Shown: piece after piece, positions 3,494 to 35,280 of the stretch | Layout of the letters: every line of letters starts with the position of its first letter | Position numbering within the stretch: position 1 is the first letter of the stretch | From: a virus | Direction: 5' to 3' (one strand) | Virus genome (UHGV): UHGV-0087155 | DNA length: 35,280 nucleotides | Notes under the pieces: model-generated | The model's input: the letters and a program-made list of their open reading frames with translations, nothing else | What the model was told of the DNA's origin: nothing | Databases searched by the model: none | Made by a program: the position numbers and the translations under genes

Positions 3494-3739
3494 ATGTGTA
3501 CTAAAGCTGAAAAATACTTTGAATGGGTTAAACGGGTACAGAATAACAATGTGGCTCTGACTGCATTTAATTGCCCCAAATGCAAAGAGCAAATTATGAC
3601 GCAATGCTCACCTGAAAATGAAGTATGGGACTCCTTCGCATGTTGTCCGTGGTGCAATGCGGTTTACTTTAAACAGGTACAAGGTGCGAAGGTAAAAGCC
3701 AGCGTAGTTATTATTCAGAATTCAATAAGCAGGCAATGA
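3494..3739 (+). CDS. early hypothetical protein, zinc-ribbon-like (81 aa)
   Basis: ATG 3494 with GGAGA at 3484-3488 (track ORF starts earlier at 3470); contains CPKC ... CCPWC cysteine pairs. Confidence 0.6.
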   Translation: MCTKAEKYFEWVKRVQNNNVALTAFNCPKCKEQIMTQCSPENEVWDSFACCPWCNAVYFKQVQGAKVKASVVIIQNSISRQ

Positions 3740-4011
3740 AAATGGCAAAAGTAATCTTTGAATTTAACAATACAGAAAATATTGAGTTTCAGGAAAATGG
3801 AGGTTTTGCCGTAAATATGAATGTGCGACTGGAAGAATCCTCACCTGAGGACCAGACCGGGCCACATGACGTAATGGCAGGCATCATCAAGAGCATGGCT
3901 CCTGAAATCATTAAAAAAGCGACCGAGGAGTTGTTGAAATCAGCCAGGGAACTTGGGCTGGAAGCTGAGGGGAAATTATTCAGCTATAACCCGAATACAG
4001 CCAGACATTAA
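3736..4011 (+). CDS. early hypothetical protein (91 aa), acidic
   Basis: ORF in the semi-essential early region; start overlaps the upstream stop; no recognisable motif. Confidence 0.55.
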   Translation: MKMAKVIFEFNNTENIEFQENGGFAVNMNVRLEESSPEDQTGPHDVMAGIIKSMAPEIIKKATEELLKSARELGLEAEGKLFSYNPNTARH

Positions 4012-4031
4012 TTCGCAAAGGAGCGCTGACA

Positions 4032-6454: not shown

Positions 6455-6623
6455 AACATCGTATTCGTGGCTGGGGAAATTTACCACGGTGAAACAGGAA
6501 TGCCCGACCTGCGGTAATGAATCCCCTGAATATCTGAAAGAGTGCCCTCATTGTGGCGGGCAGAAATGCAACCACTGCGATATGGGCGACGACACGGCGT
6601 GCATGAATTGTGAAGGTGAGTGA
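6441..6623 (+). CDS. small Cys-rich protein with four CxxC pairs (60 aa)
   Basis: GGAGGT RBS at 6429-6434; motifs CPTC, CPHC, CNHC, CMNC. Confidence 0.6.
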   Translation: MENNETSYSWLGKFTTVKQECPTCGNESPEYLKECPHCGGQKCNHCDMGDDTACMNCEGE

Positions 6624-6624
6624 T

Positions 6625-6936
6625 ATGAATAATGGTGTATTTTCAAAATCAGAAGAGCTTGCCGCCCTGCTGATTGCCGGTGGTTTGCCGAAAAAAGAAG
6701 TGCATGACTTTGTGAATTTTGTATATGAGCCGTCTCATGAAAAAGCTATTGATGAAGTCATGGCGTACCGGTTTGGCATTATTGCTGAGTCACTGAGTCC
6801 TCACTGGATTATTGAAAATCTCCGCACTATTGCTGATGGTAACGATAAAGTGGCGGCTGTCGCCGCCCTTGATGTGCTGCAACGTATGAACCGGGAACTA
6901 TTCAATCCCGAGTTTCTTTTTAAGAAACGAGGTTAA
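6625..6936 (+). CDS. early hypothetical protein (103 aa)
   Basis: ATG 6625 after GAAGGTGAG (track ORF starts at GTG 6610); stop TAA at 6934-6936. Confidence 0.55.
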   Translation: MNNGVFSKSEELAALLIAGGLPKKEVHDFVNFVYEPSHEKAIDEVMAYRFGIIAESLSPHWIIENLRTIADGNDKVAAVAALDVLQRMNRELFNPEFLFKKRG

Positions 6937-7314
6937 CCACTGTTTGCCGACGTCTGTTACGAGCGTCATCGGGGCGTCGGCAAGGTCCTGTTTTATGCGC
7001 TCAAGAATGGGTTTTTGATGTAGTGCTTTCGCAAAATCATGACCATCTTGTGTAAGTCTGACACTGGTGCCTGAATATGAATATCCGAGGCTTGTTGGGG
7101 TGAGACCAATGCTTTTTGCGGTGCCTGTTTCCAGATATCTGTTGCTGATAAAACCATTTTCAACCAGCAACAGAAGATGGAAAACCAGCTTCTGATGGCT
7201 GTCGCTGTGCCGCTGAGAACGATCCCAGCCGACATCTTCCAGTCGAATGAATGCGGTGTCGGCCTCCAGAAAAACATCAAATATTCTGGCTATCTCGTCA
7301 TAATCAATTTTCAT
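6898..7314 (-). CDS. hypothetical protein (138 aa) encoded antisense to the early operon
   Basis: ATG at minus 7314 with AAGGA 7 nt upstream; it is the only sizeable ORF in 6937-7344; its 3' end overlaps the converging plus gene by 39 bp. N-terminus (MKIDYDEIARIFDVFLEAD...) is reminiscent of small DUF2513-type phage proteins; this is from memory, not verified. Confidence 0.5.
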   Translation of the reverse strand: MKIDYDEIARIFDVFLEADTAFIRLEDVGWDRSQRHSDSHQKLVFHLLLLVENGFISNRYLETGTAKSIGLTPTSLGYSYSGTSVRLTQDGHDFAKALHQKPILERIKQDLADAPMTLVTDVGKQWLTSFLKKKLGIE

Positions 7315-7344
7315 ATCTCATTCCTTAATATGAGAGGTGAGCAA

Positions 7345-7896
7345 ATGAATCGCACATCGCTTATTAAATTAATCCATGTCGCCCGTCGGGAGCTACAACT
7401 CGACGATGACACTTACCGCGCCTTTCTGATGCAGAAAACGGGCAAAACCAGTTGCCGCGAGCTGACGGTTACGCAACTGGAACAGACGCTCGATGCAATG
7501 AAAGAACGCGGCTTTAAGAAGCTGAATAAACATCCACGTCGCCGCTTTAAGGAACATGTCACGCCCCGCGAGAAGGTGTACAAAGTCTGGCAGCAGATGG
7601 CAGAAGACGGTTTTATTACCGATGGCGGTGATGTGGCGCTGGATAAATATGTTCAGCGCCTGACGGCGAAACGTAATGGCGGACAGGGTGTTTCCACACT
7701 GGCTTGGTGCCACGGAGAATCGTTGCAGGTTGTGCTTGAAACCCTGAAGCAGTGGCACATCCGCTGTATTCGTGAAGCTTTTTCCCGTCACGGGCTTCCG
7801 TTGCCGGTCAGTCCGTCCGGGCGTGAACTGCGCGGCTATGACGCCATGACGGCGGCTTATGTCCATGCCAGAAAGACGCGGAGGATGGCACAATGA
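7345..7896 (+). CDS. gemA: GemA, gene-expression modulator (183 aa)
   Basis: Matches Mu GemA from MNRTSLIKLIHVARRELQLDDDTYRAFL...; ATG 7345 with GAGAGGTGAG RBS. The track ORF extends upstream to 7177 but that extension has no RBS. Confidence 0.85.
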   Translation: MNRTSLIKLIHVARRELQLDDDTYRAFLMQKTGKTSCRELTVTQLEQTLDAMKERGFKKLNKHPRRRFKEHVTPREKVYKVWQQMAEDGFITDGGDVALDKYVQRLTAKRNGGQGVSTLAWCHGESLQVVLETLKQWHIRCIREAFSRHGLPLPVSPSGRELRGYDAMTAAYVHARKTRRMAQ

Positions 7897-8282
7897 CGGA
7901 AGATTTATTTGGTGATTTGCAGGATGACACCATCCTGGCACATCTTGACAATCCCGCAGAGGATACGTCACGCTTTCCGGCACTGCTGGCGGAGCTGAAC
8001 GATTTACTACGCGGGGAATTGTCCCGGCTGGGTGTTGATCCTGCCCATTCACTGGAGATTGTTGTGGCTATCTGTAAGCATCTGGGCGGCGGTCAGGTCT
8101 ACATTCCGCGCGGTCAGGTTCTGGACTCGCTGATTCGGGATTTGCGTATCTGGAATGATTTTAACGGTCGCAACGTCAGCGAACTGACCACCCGTTATGG
8201 TGTCACTTTCAATACGGTTTACAAGGCCATTCGCCGGATGCGACGGCTGAAATACCGCCAGTACCAGCCTTCACTTCTGTAA
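7893..8282 (+). CDS. mor: Mor, middle operon regulator (129 aa)
   Basis: Matches Mu Mor in length and sequence; start overlaps the gemA stop; last gene before the early terminator. Confidence 0.9.
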   Translation: MTEDLFGDLQDDTILAHLDNPAEDTSRFPALLAELNDLLRGELSRLGVDPAHSLEIVVAICKHLGGGQVYIPRGQVLDSLIRDLRIWNDFNGRNVSELTTRYGVTFNTVYKAIRRMRRLKYRQYQPSLL

Positions 8283-8702: not shown

Positions 8703-9125
8703 ATGCAGCATGATTTATTTGAACACGATCCGGCAATTCGCCAGTTAATCGGACATATTGATAACATCCCGGCCCCGGAACTGGAATCACGCTGGCCCCG
8801 TTCGGTGGTTGATCTGATTGATGTTCTGGAAAACGAACTGAAACGCCAGAACGTCAGCAATCCCCGTGAACTTGCCCGTAAACAGGCCGTTGCCCTGTCC
8901 TGTTTTCTGGGTGGACGGCAGTTTTACATCCCCTGCGGCGATACGATCCTGACCGCGTTACGCGACGATTTGCTTTACTGCCAGTTTAATGGTCGTAACA
9001 TGGAAGAACTGCGTCGCCAGTATCGCCTGTCCCAGCCGCAGATCTACCAGATTATTGCCCGCCAGAGAAAGCTGCATACACGACGTCATCAGCCTGATCT
9101 GTTCTCACCTGAAAGCCAGAAATAA
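8703..9125 (+). CDS. C: C, late-gene transcriptional activator (140 aa)
   Basis: Matches Mu C protein (MQHDLFEHDPAIRQLIGHIDNIPAPELESRW...) and is a paralog of Mor; RBS AAGGGGAAAAT before ATG 8703. The Mor-dependent middle promoter must lie in 8313-8702; not pinpointed. Confidence 0.95.
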   Translation: MQHDLFEHDPAIRQLIGHIDNIPAPELESRWPRSVVDLIDVLENELKRQNVSNPRELARKQAVALSCFLGGRQFYIPCGDTILTALRDDLLYCQFNGRNMEELRRQYRLSQPQIYQIIARQRKLHTRRHQPDLFSPESQK

Positions 9126-29665: not shown

Positions 29666-30198
29666 CACCCTGGCAGACGGCCTTTCTGCAATTACTGCCG
29701 TCAGGGCTTGCCTGGAATAAAAGCCCCGACAGCAAATTATCTGCGCTGGCGCAGGCCATCAGCGACGTGATTGCCACTGCGGCGGATGATGCGCGGCAAA
29801 TGCTGCGGGAGCGTTTCCCGTCCACATCCCGCTGGTATCTGGGGGAGTGGGAATCATTTCTGGGGTTGCCGGACTGTACCAGCGAAAACGGCACCCTGTC
29901 CGAACGCCAGCGGGCTGCCGCGAATAAAATGCGTATGACCGGCAATCTGAGTCGGCGCTTTTATGAATGGCTGGCTGCGCAGTACGGTTTTACCGTCAGG
30001 CTGACGGATTCCACAGAAGGCCAGTGGGTTACGCAGGTCAATATTTACGGTATTAAAAATTATCGCAACGCAACGGTGCTGGATAATGTTCTGACGCCGT
30101 TACGTGTTTATGAATCGGGTGCGCTGGAATGTTTACTGGAGAAATATAAACCCGCGCATCAGATTTATAAATTTGTTTACCATGACGGAGATAACTAA
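29656..30198 (+). CDS. tail / baseplate protein (180 aa)
   Basis: Precedes the tail fibre gene as in Mu (gp48-like). Confidence 0.8.
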   Translation: MAVTPWQTAFLQLLPSGLAWNKSPDSKLSALAQAISDVIATAADDARQMLRERFPSTSRWYLGEWESFLGLPDCTSENGTLSERQRAAANKMRMTGNLSRRFYEWLAAQYGFTVRLTDSTEGQWVTQVNIYGIKNYRNATVLDNVLTPLRVYESGALECLLEKYKPAHQIYKFVYHDGDN

Positions 30199-31601
30199 TG
30201 TTTTATATTGATAACGACAGCGGCGTAACCGTCATGCCGCCCGTATCCGCCCAGCGTAGTGCTATCGTTCGCTGGTTTTCAGAAGGTGACGGGAATAATG
30301 TTATCACATGGCCCGGCATGGACTGGTTTAATATTGTGCAGGCGGAGTTATTAAACACGCTGGAAGAAGCCGGTATTCAACCGGATAAAACAAAATTAAA
30401 CCAGCTTGCACTGTCCATTAAAGCCATTATGAGCAATAACGCGCTGCTGATAAAAAATAACCTCAGCGAAATTAAAACTGCCGGGGCATCAGCACAGCGT
30501 ACAGCACGTGAAAATCTGGATATCTATGATGCCAGCCTGAACAAAAAAGGACTCGTTCAGCTAACCAGTGCCACTGACAGCCCCAGTGAAACGCTGGCAG
30601 CCACCGCAAAAGCGGTGAAAATTGCGATGGATAATGCCAATGCCCGTCTGGCAAAAGACCGGAACGGAGCAGATATTCCCAATAAGCCGCTGTTTATCCA
30701 AAACCTCGGTTTACAGGAAACGGTAAACAGGGCTGGTAACGCCGTGCAAAAAAATGGCGATACCTTGTCCGGTGGGCTTACTTTTGAAAATGACTCAATC
30801 CTTGCCTGGATTCGAAATACTGACTGGGCGAAGATTGGATTTAAAAATGATGCCGATGGTGACACTGATTCATACATGTGGTTTGAAACAGGCGACAACG
30901 GCAATGAATATTTCAAATGGAGAAGCCGCCAGAGCACCACAACAAAAGACCTGATGACGCTGAAATGGGATGCACTAAATATTCTGGTAAATGCCGTCAT
31001 TAATGGCAGTCTTGGAGTTGGTACGACGAATGCGTTAGGTGGTAGCTCTATTGTTCTTGGTGATAATGACACCGGATTTAAACAGAATGGAGACGGCATT
31101 CTGGATGTTTATGCTAATAGTCAGCGTGTATTCCGCTTTCAGAATGGAGTGGCTATTGCTTTTAAAAATATTCAGGCCGGGGATGGTAAAAAATTCACGC
31201 TATCCAGCTCCAACAACTCCACGAAGAACGTAGGGTTTAATTTATGGGGCGCTTCATCAAGACCAACTGTTGCAGAGCTTGGTGATGATTCAGGCTGGCA
31301 TTTCTATAGTCAGCGAAATACAGATAATTCGGTGATATTTGCTGTAAACGGTCACATACAACCAGGTAACTGGAGTAACTTTGATTCCCGATACGTAAAA
31401 GATGTTCGTCTTGGTTCACAGCAATATTATGGAGTGAACAACTGGCAAACATGGAATTTCCAGTGCCCGTCAGGTCATGTATTGTCTGGTATTAATGTTC
31501 AGGATACAGGGTCCAACTCTGCCGATAATATAGCGGGCGTTTATTACAGACCCGTTCAAAAGTATATAAATGGCACCTGGTATAATGTAGCGAGCGTTTA
31601 A
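30198..31601 (+). CDS. S: tail fibre protein S (467 aa): constant N-terminal part fused to the variable part encoded inside the G segment
   Basis: gixL lies inside this gene at 30694-30719; the residues right after the junction (QETVN) are shared with the start of the oppositely oriented S' ORF. Confidence 0.85.
30694..30719. repeat. gixL, left Gin recombination site
   Basis: TTATCCAAAACCTCGGTTTACAGGAA; its near-perfect inverted copy (two mismatches) is at 33640-33665. Confidence 0.8.
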
Positions 31602-31602
31602 T

Positions 31603-32130
31603 ATGATCCACTTAAAGAACATAAAAATTGGTAATGCTAAAACACCGGAGCAGTATGAGTTAACAAAGAAGCACGGAGTTATCTGGCTTTACTCTGAAGA
31701 CGGAAAAAACTGGTATGAGGAAGTGAAAAACTTTCAGCCAGACACAATAAAGATTGTTTACGATGCAAATAATATTATTGTCGCCATCACCAAAGATGCC
31801 TCCACGCTTAACCCTGAAGGTTATAGCGTCGTTGAGGTTCCTGATATTACAGCCAACCGCCGCGCTGATGATTCAGGAAAGTGGATGTTTAAGGATGGAG
31901 CTGTGGTTAAACGGATTTATACGGCAGACGAGCAACAACAACAGGCCGAATCACAAAAGGCCGTGTTACTTTCCGAAGCAGAAAGCGTTATTCAGCCACT
32001 GGAACGCGCTGTCAGGCTGAATATGGCGACGGATGAGGAACGCGCACGACTGGAGTCATGGGAACGCTACAGTGTTCTGGTCAGCCGTGTGGATACGGCA
32101 AATCCTGAATGGCCACAAAAGCCTGAATAA
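31603..32130 (+). CDS. U: tail fibre assembly protein U (175 aa)
   Basis: Follows S; paralogous to the minus-strand U' (both begin M-HLKNI... and share ...DGKNWYEE... and [12 protein letters not shown]). Confidence 0.8.
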
Positions 32131-32135
32131 AAATT

Positions 32136-32157
32136 AAGGCCCGATAGCGGGCCTTGT
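32136..32157. terminator. bidirectional hairpin between convergent U and U'
   Basis: GGCCCG (32138-32143), loop ATAG, CGGGCC (32148-32153), flanked by A/T on both sides. Confidence 0.5.
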
Positions 32158-32158
32158 T

Positions 32159-32692
32159 TCATTCTGGTTGTTCTGGAAACGTTACTGGCAGGCTGGAGGT
32201 GTCTGTGGATTCGACCTCCTGCGCATAGAGCATCCACTCGGTTAATTTTTGTTTATTCTCGTCGGAAATGATGCCCAGCCGTAGCTGTGAGTCCCATAGC
32301 TGGGTTTTATCCCTGACAAGTTGCAACAGGCTTTGCTTTTCATTCTCTGCCTGCTGCCTCTGTTCCTCTTCGGTATAAGTTCGCTTTATCACTACGCCAT
32401 CTTTGAACATCCATTTACCCGAAATATCAACCCGGCGATTTGCTGTAATATCAGGAACCTCAACGACGCTTGCGCCTTCTGGATTAATTGCTGAAACATC
32501 CTTTTCAATACAAATAATAACGCCGTTGTGGTCATAGACCATTTTCAACGTATCAGTCTGGAAATTCTTTTGTTCCTCATACCAGTTTTTTCCATCCTCT
32601 GTATAAAGCCATTTGATGTTAAATTGTTTCGTTAGCTGGTATTGCTCTTTTGTTTTAGGGTTGCCAGCAGTAATATTTTTTAAGTGCATCAT
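32159..32692 (-). CDS. alternative tail fibre assembly protein U' (177 aa)
   Basis: Minus-strand ORF with GGGGAG RBS; paralog of U. Confidence 0.8.
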   Translation of the reverse strand: MMHLKNITAGNPKTKEQYQLTKQFNIKWLYTEDGKNWYEEQKNFQTDTLKMVYDHNGVIICIEKDVSAINPEGASVVEVPDITANRRVDISGKWMFKDGVVIKRTYTEEEQRQQAENEKQSLLQLVRDKTQLWDSQLRLGIISDENKQKLTEWMLYAQEVESTDTSSLPVTFPEQPE

Positions 32693-32694
32693 AA

Positions 32695-33648
32695 TTAAAT
32701 ACTCCCCGCGTTATACCACGTTCCATTAATGCAATACTGAATTGGCCTTGCCTGAGTTGTATCAATTAATTCATCACGGTTCCCGTTAACTGAACCCGTA
32801 ACGACATAACCTGACCTGTCAGACCAGCCGGGACCATTCCATGTCTGAACAGATGACAGACCGCCAAGGCGAATACCTGTAATAAACCTTGAGTTACATT
32901 CTGCCTGCGTGTATGCACCAACATCTCCCGCTGAGGGTTTGCGGGTCGTGGTGTAAAACTCTGACCAGTCAGCCTCAAATCCATAACCATCACGCGCTGA
33001 ACGATAAAAAATACCGCCGTTCCTGTAATTCACGCGGAACTGTACAGCAGGGCAGCTCCCCGTATTCATATTGAAGTGGAGGATTAATGTCGATGCGCCA
33101 CCAATGTTTGCGTTATAGACCCCGCTATTCCAGTTCCAGCCAACAGCTTTATCATTTCCGACAGTGCTTCCTGTTTGCCCTAAAGCAAATGCAGGTTGTT
33201 GATTTTTCGTGTTGTAGTCTCGTCGCCAGCCAGGAGCATAAGCATCACCATGATTAATATAAGTGAATTGAGCGTTAGTAATTCCGCCACCGCTGGACGT
33301 GCTCGGCGTAGTAACGCGTATGGTCATTGCGCCGCGAGTGCCAATAACTTCCACCACAGCACCTGCAAGACAAATATTTCCGCAACCTGTATCTGTAATG
33401 ACCTTATTATTTGCATAAGCCCATGAGCCTTTGCACATCCAGTAAGGATGGTTAAATGCTCCCTGACTCTCCAGCCACGAAATAAATTGCGCGGTTGTCC
33501 AGACCTGACTATCGCCACCAATATTCAGCCATGCGCTATATGCGCGGCAGGCCCCAATATTTTTGGTGAAGGTATCTTTCCCCGGAATATCTGCGCCGTT
33601 CTGGTTTTTCTGTAATGCGCCAGAAGCCTGATTTACCGTTTCCTGCAA
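32695..33648 (-). CDS. alternative tail fibre variable part S'v (about 317 codons), no own start; expressed only after G inversion fuses it to the S constant part
   Basis: The ORF opens at the gixR boundary with TTG (not a real start) and begins QETVN like the S junction. Confidence 0.8.
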   Translation of the reverse strand: MQETVNQASGALQKNQNGADIPGKDTFTKNIGACRAYSAWLNIGGDSQVWTTAQFISWLESQGAFNHPYWMCKGSWAYANNKVITDTGCGNICLAGAVVEVIGTRGAMTIRVTTPSTSSGGGITNAQFTYINHGDAYAPGWRRDYNTKNQQPAFALGQTGSTVGNDKAVGWNWNSGVYNANIGGASTLILHFNMNTGSCPAVQFRVNYRNGGIFYRSARDGYGFEADWSEFYTTTRKPSAGDVGAYTQAECNSRFITGIRLGGLSSVQTWNGPGWSDRSGYVVTGSVNGNRDELIDTTQARPIQYCINGTWYNAGSI

Positions 33649-33719: not shown

Positions 33720-34337
33720 GTGCTGATTGGCTATGTAAGGGTATCAACAAATGACCAGAATACAGACCTGCAACGAAACGCTCTTGTTTGTGCAGGATGT
33801 GAACAAATATTTGAAGATAAATTAAGCGGAACAAGGACAGACAGACCTGGATTAAAACGCGCGTTAAAGCGCCTTCAAAAAGGTGACACACTGGTTGTCT
33901 GGAAACTGGATCGCCTCGGGCGAAGCATGAAACATCTGATTTCCCTCGTCGGGGAACTACGGGAGCGAGGGATTAATTTTCGCAGTCTTACCGACAGCAT
34001 AGACACATCTTCTCCAATGGGGCGTTTTTTCTTCCACGTTATGGGTGCCCTGGCTGAAATGGAACGAGAACTAATCATCGAGCGAACGATGGCTGGACTT
34101 GCTGCCGCCAGAAATAAAGGCCGTATTGGTGGGCGACCACCTAAACTAACCAAAGCGGAATGGGAGCAGGCCGGGCGTTTATTAGCACAAGGAATCCCCC
34201 GCAAGCAGGTTGCATTGATCTATGATGTGGCTCTGTCAACTCTGTATAAAAAACACCCCGCGAAACGAACGCATATAGAAAACGACGATCGAATCAATCA
34301 AATCGATCGGCAATACAGATCGATTATGCCCCAATAA
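33720..34337 (+). CDS. gin: Gin serine invertase (205-aa ORF, GTG start)
   Basis: Matches Mu Gin (MLIGYVRVSTNDQNTDLQRNALVCAGCEQIFEDKLSG...), catalytic Ser in the VRVST motif; this ORF runs ~12 codons longer than I remember for Mu Gin. Confidence 0.95.
   Translation: MLIGYVRVSTNDQNTDLQRNALVCAGCEQIFEDKLSGTRTDRPGLKRALKRLQKGDTLVVWKLDRLGRSMKHLISLVGELRERGINFRSLTDSIDTSSPMGRFFFHVMGALAEMERELIIERTMAGLAAARNKGRIGGRPPKLTKAEWEQAGRLLAQGIPRKQVALIYDVALSTLYKKHPAKRTHIENDDRINQIDRQYRSIMPQ
34287..34321. promoter_or_regulatory. cluster of three GATC (Dam) sites upstream of the mom promoter
   Basis: GATC at 34287-34290, 34305-34308, 34318-34321; in Mu three Dam sites upstream of Pmom govern OxyR-mediated repression. 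A -10-like TAAGAT is at 34362-34367. Confidence 0.6.
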
Positions 34338-34395
34338 CCACACTCAACCCACGATGTTTTTTAAGATAGTGGCGAATTGATGCAAAGGAGGTGAG

Positions 34396-34584
34396 ATGAA
34401 ATCAATTCGCTGTAAAAACTGCAACAAACTGTTATTTAAGGCGGATTCCTTTGATCACATTGAAATCAGGTGTCCGCGTTGCAAACGTCACATCATAATG
34501 CTGAATGCCTGCGAGCATCCCACGGAGAAACATTGTGGGAAAAGAGAAAAAATCACGCATTCTGACGAAACCGTGCGTTATTGA
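34396..34584 (+). CDS. com: Com, zinc-finger translational activator of mom (62 aa)
   Basis: Matches Mu Com ([36 protein letters not shown]...); RBS AAAGGAGGTGAG. Confidence 0.9.
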
Positions 34585-35230
34585 GTATGAAGGCCAGATT
34601 GTTGGCTATGGTTCAAAGGAACTGCGCGTTGAAACCATATCCTGTTGGCTGGCCCGCACAATTATTCAGACAAAGCACTATTCCCGCCGTTTTGTGAATA
34701 ACTCTTACCTTCATCTGGGGGTATTCAGCGGACGCGATCTGGTTGGCGTTCTCCAGTGGGGATATGCCCTTAACCCCAACTCAGGTCGTCGTGTCGTGCT
34801 TGAAACGGATAACCGGGGCTATATGGAGTTGAACCGCATGTGGCTACACGACGACATGCCCCGCAACTCTGAATCACGGGCCATCAGCTACGCGCTGAAA
34901 GTTATCAGATTACTGTATCCGTCAGTGGAGTGGGTTCAGTCCTTTGCTGACGAACGCTGCGGACGCGCAGGCGTTGTGTATCAGGCGTCGAATTTTGATT
35001 TTATTGGCAGCCATGAAAGCACGTTCTACGAGCTGGATGGTGAGTGGTATCACGAGATAACGATGAACGCGATTAAGCGAGGTGGACAACGAGGCGTGTA
35101 TTTACGGGCTAATAAAGAGCGTGCCGTGGTGCACAAATTTAATCAGTATCGCTACATCAGATTCCTGAACAAGCGAGCAAGGAAGCGGCTAAATACCAAG
35201 CTATTCAGGGTTCAGCCATACCCTAAGTGA
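34535..35230 (+). CDS. mom: Mom DNA-modification protein (231 aa from GTG 34535; the ORF is open from ATG 34505)
   Basis: Matches Mu Mom; overlaps the com 3' end in another frame; the GTG start gives the 231-aa length I recall, the exact start is uncertain. Confidence 0.85.
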
Positions 35231-35250
35231 TCCCCATGGAATGAATAAAA

Positions 35251-35275
35251 AGCAGTAATTAATACTGCTGTTTCA
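35251..35275 (+). terminator. hairpin after mom
   Basis: AGCAGTA (35251-35257), ATTAA, TACTGCT (35263-35269), then GTTTCATTT. Confidence 0.5.
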
Positions 35276-35280
35276 TTTGA

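Follow-up and report, generated by a model that had tools for sequence, protein, structure and literature searches.

The closest described system is the com-mom operon of phage Mu (AF083977, genes Mu_52 and Mu_53), which is transcribed from the late promoter Pmom. This promoter is characterised by poor -35 and -10 elements, a suboptimal spacing and a stretch of T residues, and Fis adds a further layer of silencing (PMC3378877). The activator of the promoter, C, recruits RNA polymerase and also promotes promoter escape (PMC4461284). In the upstream operator, Dam methylation of the GATC sites prevents the binding of OxyR, as laid out in PMC3378877 and in its refs 12-14. At the level of the mRNA, the GUG start codon of mom is located within the stem of a translation-inhibition structure (TIS) (PMC6483171). 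The encoded protein, Mom, is a GNAT-fold, Gly-tRNA(Gly)-dependent DNA aminoacyltransferase, which transfers glycine to the N6 position of adenine, after which the transferred group is rearranged on the base (PMC13219725). Mutagenesis revealed nine important residues (W48, H58, Y59, R111, S124, D149, R151, Y159 and W181), and activity is retained without the first 10 residues, in the form that was crystallised (PMC13219725).

Other known systems resemble the operon in part. In the agn43 (Ag43) switch and in the gtr switches of P22 and Salmonella, GATC sites are likewise located within the OxyR site and their methylation blocks OxyR (PMC2909390). These switches bring about a heritable ON/OFF phase variation of chromosomal or prophage surface-antigen genes. 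At mom, by contrast, OxyR serves solely as a repressor, the promoter downstream of it depends on an activator, expression is a one-time lytic event and a translational lock operated by Com is added. The gtr switches are built on a three half-site layout (PMC2909390), in contrast to the single operator of the locus described below. The mom operator is similar in mechanism, in that methylation excludes OxyR, yet it is not classed as a member of this group, and heritable ON/OFF states are not expected in a gene of the lytic phase. On the side of the enzyme, Mom can be superposed on FemX and TacT, two tRNA-dependent GNAT aminoacyltransferases with which it shares the GNAT fold and the use of, or action on, aminoacyl-tRNA (PMC13219725). 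Unlike these proteins, Mom has the N6 of adenine in double-stranded DNA as its acceptor and contains a helix-turn-helix-like insertion (residues ~175-209) that is essential for activity.

The DNA analysed here is the virus genome UHGV-0087155, and the whole stretch of 35,280 nucleotides is referred to as the window. By its sequence, the window is a Muvirus genome and a relative of Mu and D108. Positions 433-35280 are colinear with positions 1481-36652 of Mu at 95-98% identity, and the right 25 kb are ~98% identical to D108, Mu and E. coli prophages, being identical to none of them. All Mu late genes in the window are full length and free of stop codons. Compared to Mu, ~65 bp are missing at the right end, and at the left the window does not include the terminal part with the repressor gene. 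The relationship to Mu is mosaic at positions 1-432, 3713-4031, 6621-7344, about 8572 and 30198-33648, and the window lacks counterparts of the Mu genes E6, gp14, gp54 and gp19. The ner-like gene shows only 48% identity to that of Mu, which implies a different immunity region. Identity to Mu falls to 64% in the tail-fibre protein S and to 56% in its chaperone U, so that a different host range is probably encoded by the G segment. As a whole, the window is depleted of GATC, with 70 sites compared to 131 +/- 11 expected from dinucleotide-preserving shuffles (at least 70 sites in 100 of 100 shuffles), and the promoter cluster of GATC sites stands out on this depleted background.

The right end of this Muvirus carries, with high confidence, a com-mom operon that works as in Mu; the parts (Table 1) are recognised from their sequence and the mechanism is taken from established Mu biology. 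No observation made here contradicts this reading. The system is a textbook one and already known; what is new is the phage that carries it, a very close relative of Mu. A complete architecture for Dam/OxyR-gated, C-activated and Com-dependent expression of mom had been proposed in the initial annotation, and every element named there is present, with a sequence equal or almost equal to that of Mu. Identity to Mu, SfMu and D108 in this region amounts to 97.3-98.2%, and the annotations beneath the match are Com, Mom and Gin; of 5426 complete E. coli genomes, 98 contain the com-mom segment. The order of gin, operator/promoter, com and mom is that of Mu, and the GATC sites, the C-binding site, the T6 run, the -10 element, the 19-mer bound by Com, the TIS and the downstream terminator region are identical. 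Between GATC I and the mom start, there are only three differences from Mu (34299, 34311 and 34352), each a T>C change in the window, and these changes spare the GATC sites, the C half-sites, the T6 run, the -10 element, com, the Com target and the TIS. Beyond these substitutions, the operon region differs from Mu in the length of Gin and in a single residue of Mom. Compared to D108 (98.0% identity) and SfMu (97.5% identity), the coding sequence of com and mom is the same; the C at 34299 is found in both phages, and the C at 34352 in SfMu. D108 possesses an extra gene after mom, where the window is like Mu and SfMu, and the spacer of its C site is a variant one (GTCTCA).

Table 1. Features of the com-mom region and of the two activator genes of the window (positions on the 35,280-nt stretch).
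Feature	Position	Strand	Description
mor, activator gene for C	7893-8282		A single residue differs from Mu Mor
C, late transcription activator	8703-9125	+	140 aa; 138/140 identical to Mu C, 2 C-terminal differences; needed in trans at Pmom
gin, G-segment serine invertase	33720-34337	+	205-aa ORF; Pfam Resolvase and HTH_7; 3' end carries the mom operator
GATC I, Dam site	34287-34290		About -87 from the mom transcription start; inside PvuI site CGATCG; invariant in all Mu-type loci
GATC II, Dam site	34305-34308		About -69; 18 bp from GATC I
GATC III	34318-34321		13 bp from GATC II
C-activator site, TTAT-N6-ATAA (TTATGCCCCAATAA)	34323-34336		About -51 to -38; identical to Mu
Weak Pmom core	34337-34367	+	-35-like ACCACA 34337-34342, 19-bp spacer, -10 TAAGAT 34362-34367
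com, zinc-ribbon translational activator of mom	34396-34584	+	62 aa; Cys6, 9, 26 and 29
Com target hairpin on the mRNA (GAAUGCCUGCGAGCAUCCC)	34503-34521	+	Loop CC-N3-GAG; stem holds ATG 34505
Translation-inhibition structure (TIS)	34519-34539	+	CCCACGG pairs with UUGUGGG; 7-bp hairpin
mom	34535-35230	+	231 aa from GTG; ORF also open from ATG 34505 (241 aa)
Terminator-like hairpin	35251-35279	+	7-bp stem, T-rich tail; begins 21 nt after the mom stop

A C-rich element and a -10-like TAAGAT had been noted downstream of the GATC sites, and both are found there as in Mu (TTATGCCCCAATAA and TAAGAT, respectively). The definition of the C-binding site as TTAT-N6-ATAA follows the literature of Nagaraja and Hattman. 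The site is located inside the late-promoter feature of AF083977, and its half-sites are kept in related loci with a variable spacer between them. The promoter core is that of Mu except for the C/T difference at 34352, a variant common to SfMu. It comprises a T6 run (34357-34362) that lies within the 19-bp spacer and merges into TAAGAT. The transcription start was placed at ~34374 from the position of the '+56' primer in PMC3378877. No sigma-70 consensus-like promoter was detected in 34200-35280, as is expected of an activator-dependent promoter. What a Pmom-type promoter requires, namely a weak promoter, a C-binding dyad and a cognate C gene, is present within the window, and activation is predicted. 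Mor, C, Com and Mom are all intact and 98-100% identical to the Mu proteins.

The initial annotation placed three GATC sites in the 3' end of gin; all of them do lie within the gin ORF, a location that is specific to this allele. They form the sole triple within 31 bp in the window. GATC I and GATC II constitute an imperfect dyad, CGATCGAAT-N6-AATCGATCG (34286-34309), and the 18-bp PvuI fragment reported for Pmom fits the position of GATC I within a PvuI site (PMC3378877). Such a cluster might have arisen by chance within the gin coding sequence and be devoid of any regulatory role. A triple within 31 bp is indeed obtained in ~11% of windows when 70 sites are placed at random and in ~39% of first-order Markov simulations, and the cluster by itself is not significant (p about 0.1-0.4). 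The significance of the triplet derives from its identity to Mu and from the 18/13-bp spacing kept in diverged relatives.

Homologous loci for comparison came mainly from a Mom search of viral contigs, the search of genome contigs giving 3 loci only. Across 24 Mu-type loci the three sites are invariant, while the neighbouring bases vary, including the position of the gin stop codon. Three loci (L006, L047 and L048) have upstream DNA that is otherwise unalignable, yet they contain three GATC sites with the identical 18/13-bp spacing; in a fourth (L046) the spacings are 31 and 13 bp. The 13-bp distance between GATC II and III is thus found in the Mu-type loci and in these four diverged ones. GATC I and II are 18 bp apart in nearly every locus compared, a class with two GATC sites included. 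Recurrence of the spacing in otherwise unalignable upstream regions, one class of which is without any gin, argues against a by-product of coding sequence, as does the description of the homologous Mu sites as experimentally defined Dam/OxyR targets in PMC3378877 and its refs 12-14. An origin of the cluster by chance is effectively refuted by the conservation across loci and is left with next to no probability. The comparison also shows that, among elements encoding Mom, no part of the operator is more conserved than the GATC I-II dyad with its 18-bp spacing.

The location of all three sites inside gin is a peculiarity of the 3' end of the gene. Gin is 99.5% identical to Mu Gin across 193 amino acids and continues with a 12-aa extension, which gives a length of 205 aa in the window compared to 193 aa in Mu and 197 aa in D108 and SfMu. 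The TAA stop codon of gin is situated between GATC I and II in Mu, where the first GATC alone is inside the gene, and between GATC II and III (GGTAA) in D108 and SfMu. The T>C changes at 34299 and 34311 amount to the loss of both of these stops, and gin of the window reads through to a TAA that forms the last three bases of the C-binding site. It is the loss of these two stop codons alone that places all three GATC sites inside gin; together with most of the C site, they are coding in the window and differ in this respect from Mu. Position 34311 is a T in essentially all other Mu-type loci. A C at this position is absent among the best E. coli and phage matches inspected and occurs in only one other IMG/VR contig, IMGVR_UViG_2585427776_000007 (L049, the same as L053).

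From the near-identity of the window operator to that of Mu, we infer that it is likewise bound and repressed by OxyR. In the register in which Mu scores best, the substitution at 34311 (about -63, between GATC II and III) removes a T specified by the OxyR consensus; the match of the window operator is weak, with 12 of 20 specified positions compared to 13 of 20 in Mu. It is conceivable, although very improbable, that the window carries a Mu com-mom operon with a weakened epigenetic gate, in which this change lowers the affinity for OxyR and leaves mom less dependent on Dam than in Mu, with gin translation crossing the operator into the C site. Such a reading could draw on the rarity of the C allele and on the loss of a consensus-specified base. 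However, the OxyR consensus scan is non-discriminating here, since 16 sites elsewhere in the window score equally well or better (at least 12). Bases between the GATC sites vary among working Mu-family phages, with Mu, D108 and SfMu differing at 34299 and 34316. The window retains all three methylation sites with unaltered spacing. Translation of the last codons of gin has no known effect on a DNA operator. A functional consequence of the C at 34311 is unlikely, and the specific proposal that this rare change measurably weakens OxyR binding and leads to Mom expression with reduced dependence on host Dam is very improbable. If true, the epigenetic gate would be loosened by a naturally occurring operator variant, for instance for growth in hosts with low or no Dam activity.

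An operator gated as in Mu would be followed by translational control, the components of which are encoded downstream. The com gene is preceded by a strong Shine-Dalgarno sequence (GGAGG, 34387-34391), and its product is identical to Mu Com at 62 of 62 positions and matches Pfam PF10122 (Zn_ribbon_Com; 36.8 bits, cutoff 22.9). The target hairpin, GAAUGCCUGCGAGCAUCCC, is an exact match to the native 19-mer bound by Com in PMC6483171, and its motif and stem are kept in 11 distinct homologous sequences. A fold of the com-mom junction had been suggested as a check of the initial annotation. For the RNA 34495-34550, the predicted MFE and centroid folds both recover the published TIS, which sequesters part of the GGAG (34524-34527) and the GUG (34535-34537). 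The z-score of the 56-nt junction is only -1.5, and stability alone is therefore not evidence for structure. Of the pairs, 11 of 11 are maintained in 11 distinct homologues (100% of cells paired). A covariation test of the Com hairpin and the TIS on 11 sequences yielded no compensatory pairs and only two wobble-preserving changes, because the stems hardly vary. Structural support for the two elements comes from the published probing (PMC6483171).

Translation of mom was considered to start at either ATG 34505 or GTG 34535, and this ambiguity is real in the databases, where the Mu record gives GTG and the D108 and SfMu records as well as the NCBI PGAP pipeline give ATG. The ORF is open from the ATG, which would yield a protein of 241 aa instead of 231 aa, and the 2026 mechanism paper numbers from the ATG, as R111 and S124 fit only the 241-aa numbering (PMC13219725). 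Initiation at the ATG is nevertheless rather unlikely. No Shine-Dalgarno sequence is located upstream of it (ACGTCACATCATAATGCTGAATG), whereas a GGAG precedes the GTG by 7 nt, in agreement with the curated Mu record, in which the GTG is annotated with a ribosome-binding site. The ATG itself lies within the stem of the Com-binding hairpin, and the GUG lies in the TIS stem, the structure on which Com control acts (PMC6483171). Comparative data point in the same direction: the ATG is replaced by GTG in several loci, and in the locus of a Scandinavium sp. MAG (L005) an in-frame TAA separates the upstream ATG from the GTG, so that the GTG alone can initiate Mom there. GTG 34535 is thus most likely the start codon of mom, and the comparison supports it as the conserved one. 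The question is functionally moot, because the form without the first 10 residues is fully active and was the one crystallised (PMC13219725).

The overlap of mom with com in another frame, noted initially, is borne out and amounts to 80 nt from the ATG or 50 nt from the GTG. Mom is identical to Mu Mom at 230 of 231 positions, the sole difference being the conservative exchange K225R, and no frameshift or stop codon relative to Mu occurs in the gene. The protein matches Pfam PF25680 (2.8e-75; 252.8 bits, cutoff 27.1), and the solved Mom structure (PDB 8bv8) matches residues 11-241 with E = 2.8e-158. All nine residues that are important by mutagenesis are present (241-aa numbering).

With these parts, the operon would operate as follows. 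In the unmethylated (dam-) state, host OxyR would bind the three-GATC operator just upstream of the C site and repress the promoter, and Dam methylation of the operator GATCs would prevent this binding. The very poor Pmom would fire only late in lytic growth, when a C dimer occupies TTAT-N6-ATAA. The dimer would untwist the spacer and recruit RNA polymerase before helping it to escape from the promoter, and Fis would silence the promoter further. On the resulting bicistronic mRNA, com would be translated efficiently from its strong Shine-Dalgarno sequence, with the GGAG of mom and GUG 34535 locked in the TIS. Binding of Com to the adjacent hairpin with its CC-N3-GAG loop would open the TIS and expose the mom start. 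Mom would then move glycine from Gly-tRNA(Gly) to the N6 of adenine in double-stranded DNA, and the glycyl group would rearrange to N6-carbamoylmethyl-adenine (6-NcmdA), shielding progeny DNA from many restriction enzymes. Such layered control would be accounted for by the toxicity of Mom to the host. The element is predicted to hypermodify its own DNA and to resist many restriction systems, which may be useful to know in phage and prophage handling and in typing. Beyond correct annotation the locus is of little importance; the points on the start codon and on the dyad refine a textbook system.

Several observations concern the annotation of the region and of its relatives. In E. coli RefSeq genomes (e.g. 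L052 and L054), the name given to Com by PGAP is 'Com family DNA-binding transcriptional regulator', contrary to its nature as an RNA-binding translational activator; many mom genes are still labelled 'hypothetical protein', and Mom is annotated from the upstream ATG. An NCBIfam scan of Mom, Com and C produced no matches, although PGAP names these proteins in genomes. The hairpin downstream of mom is flanked by T-rich tails and scores as terminator-like in either orientation. The minus strand has short ORFs in 34236-35089, which were rejected as genes: none exceeds 55 aa, all are contained in conserved genes of the plus strand, and no related record annotates them.

A second class of Mom loci was encountered in the comparison (L024, L029-L033, L035-L045 and L051; e.g. 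L040, 1260-1560). Their Mom proteins show 94-98% identity, the com allele differs (~73% nucleotide identity) and the upstream region is unrelated. This region has only two GATC sites at a distance of 18 bp, which form the almost perfect dyad GACGATCGATA-N6-TATCGATCGTC, and is not accompanied by gin. This class appears to have arisen by recombination right at the com-mom junction element. Among more distant homologues, the Scandinavium locus (~1455-1503 of L005) encodes a Mom that is 82% identical and has a 6-nt insertion in the TIS loop. In a Magnetospira sp. MAG (L007, ~120-150), the sequence CGCCAGGGAGCG, followed by GGAG and ATG, is found upstream of a Mom homologue with 53% identity. It resembles the CC-N3-GAG hairpin targeted by Com and suggests that the translational lock may reach even distant Mom loci.
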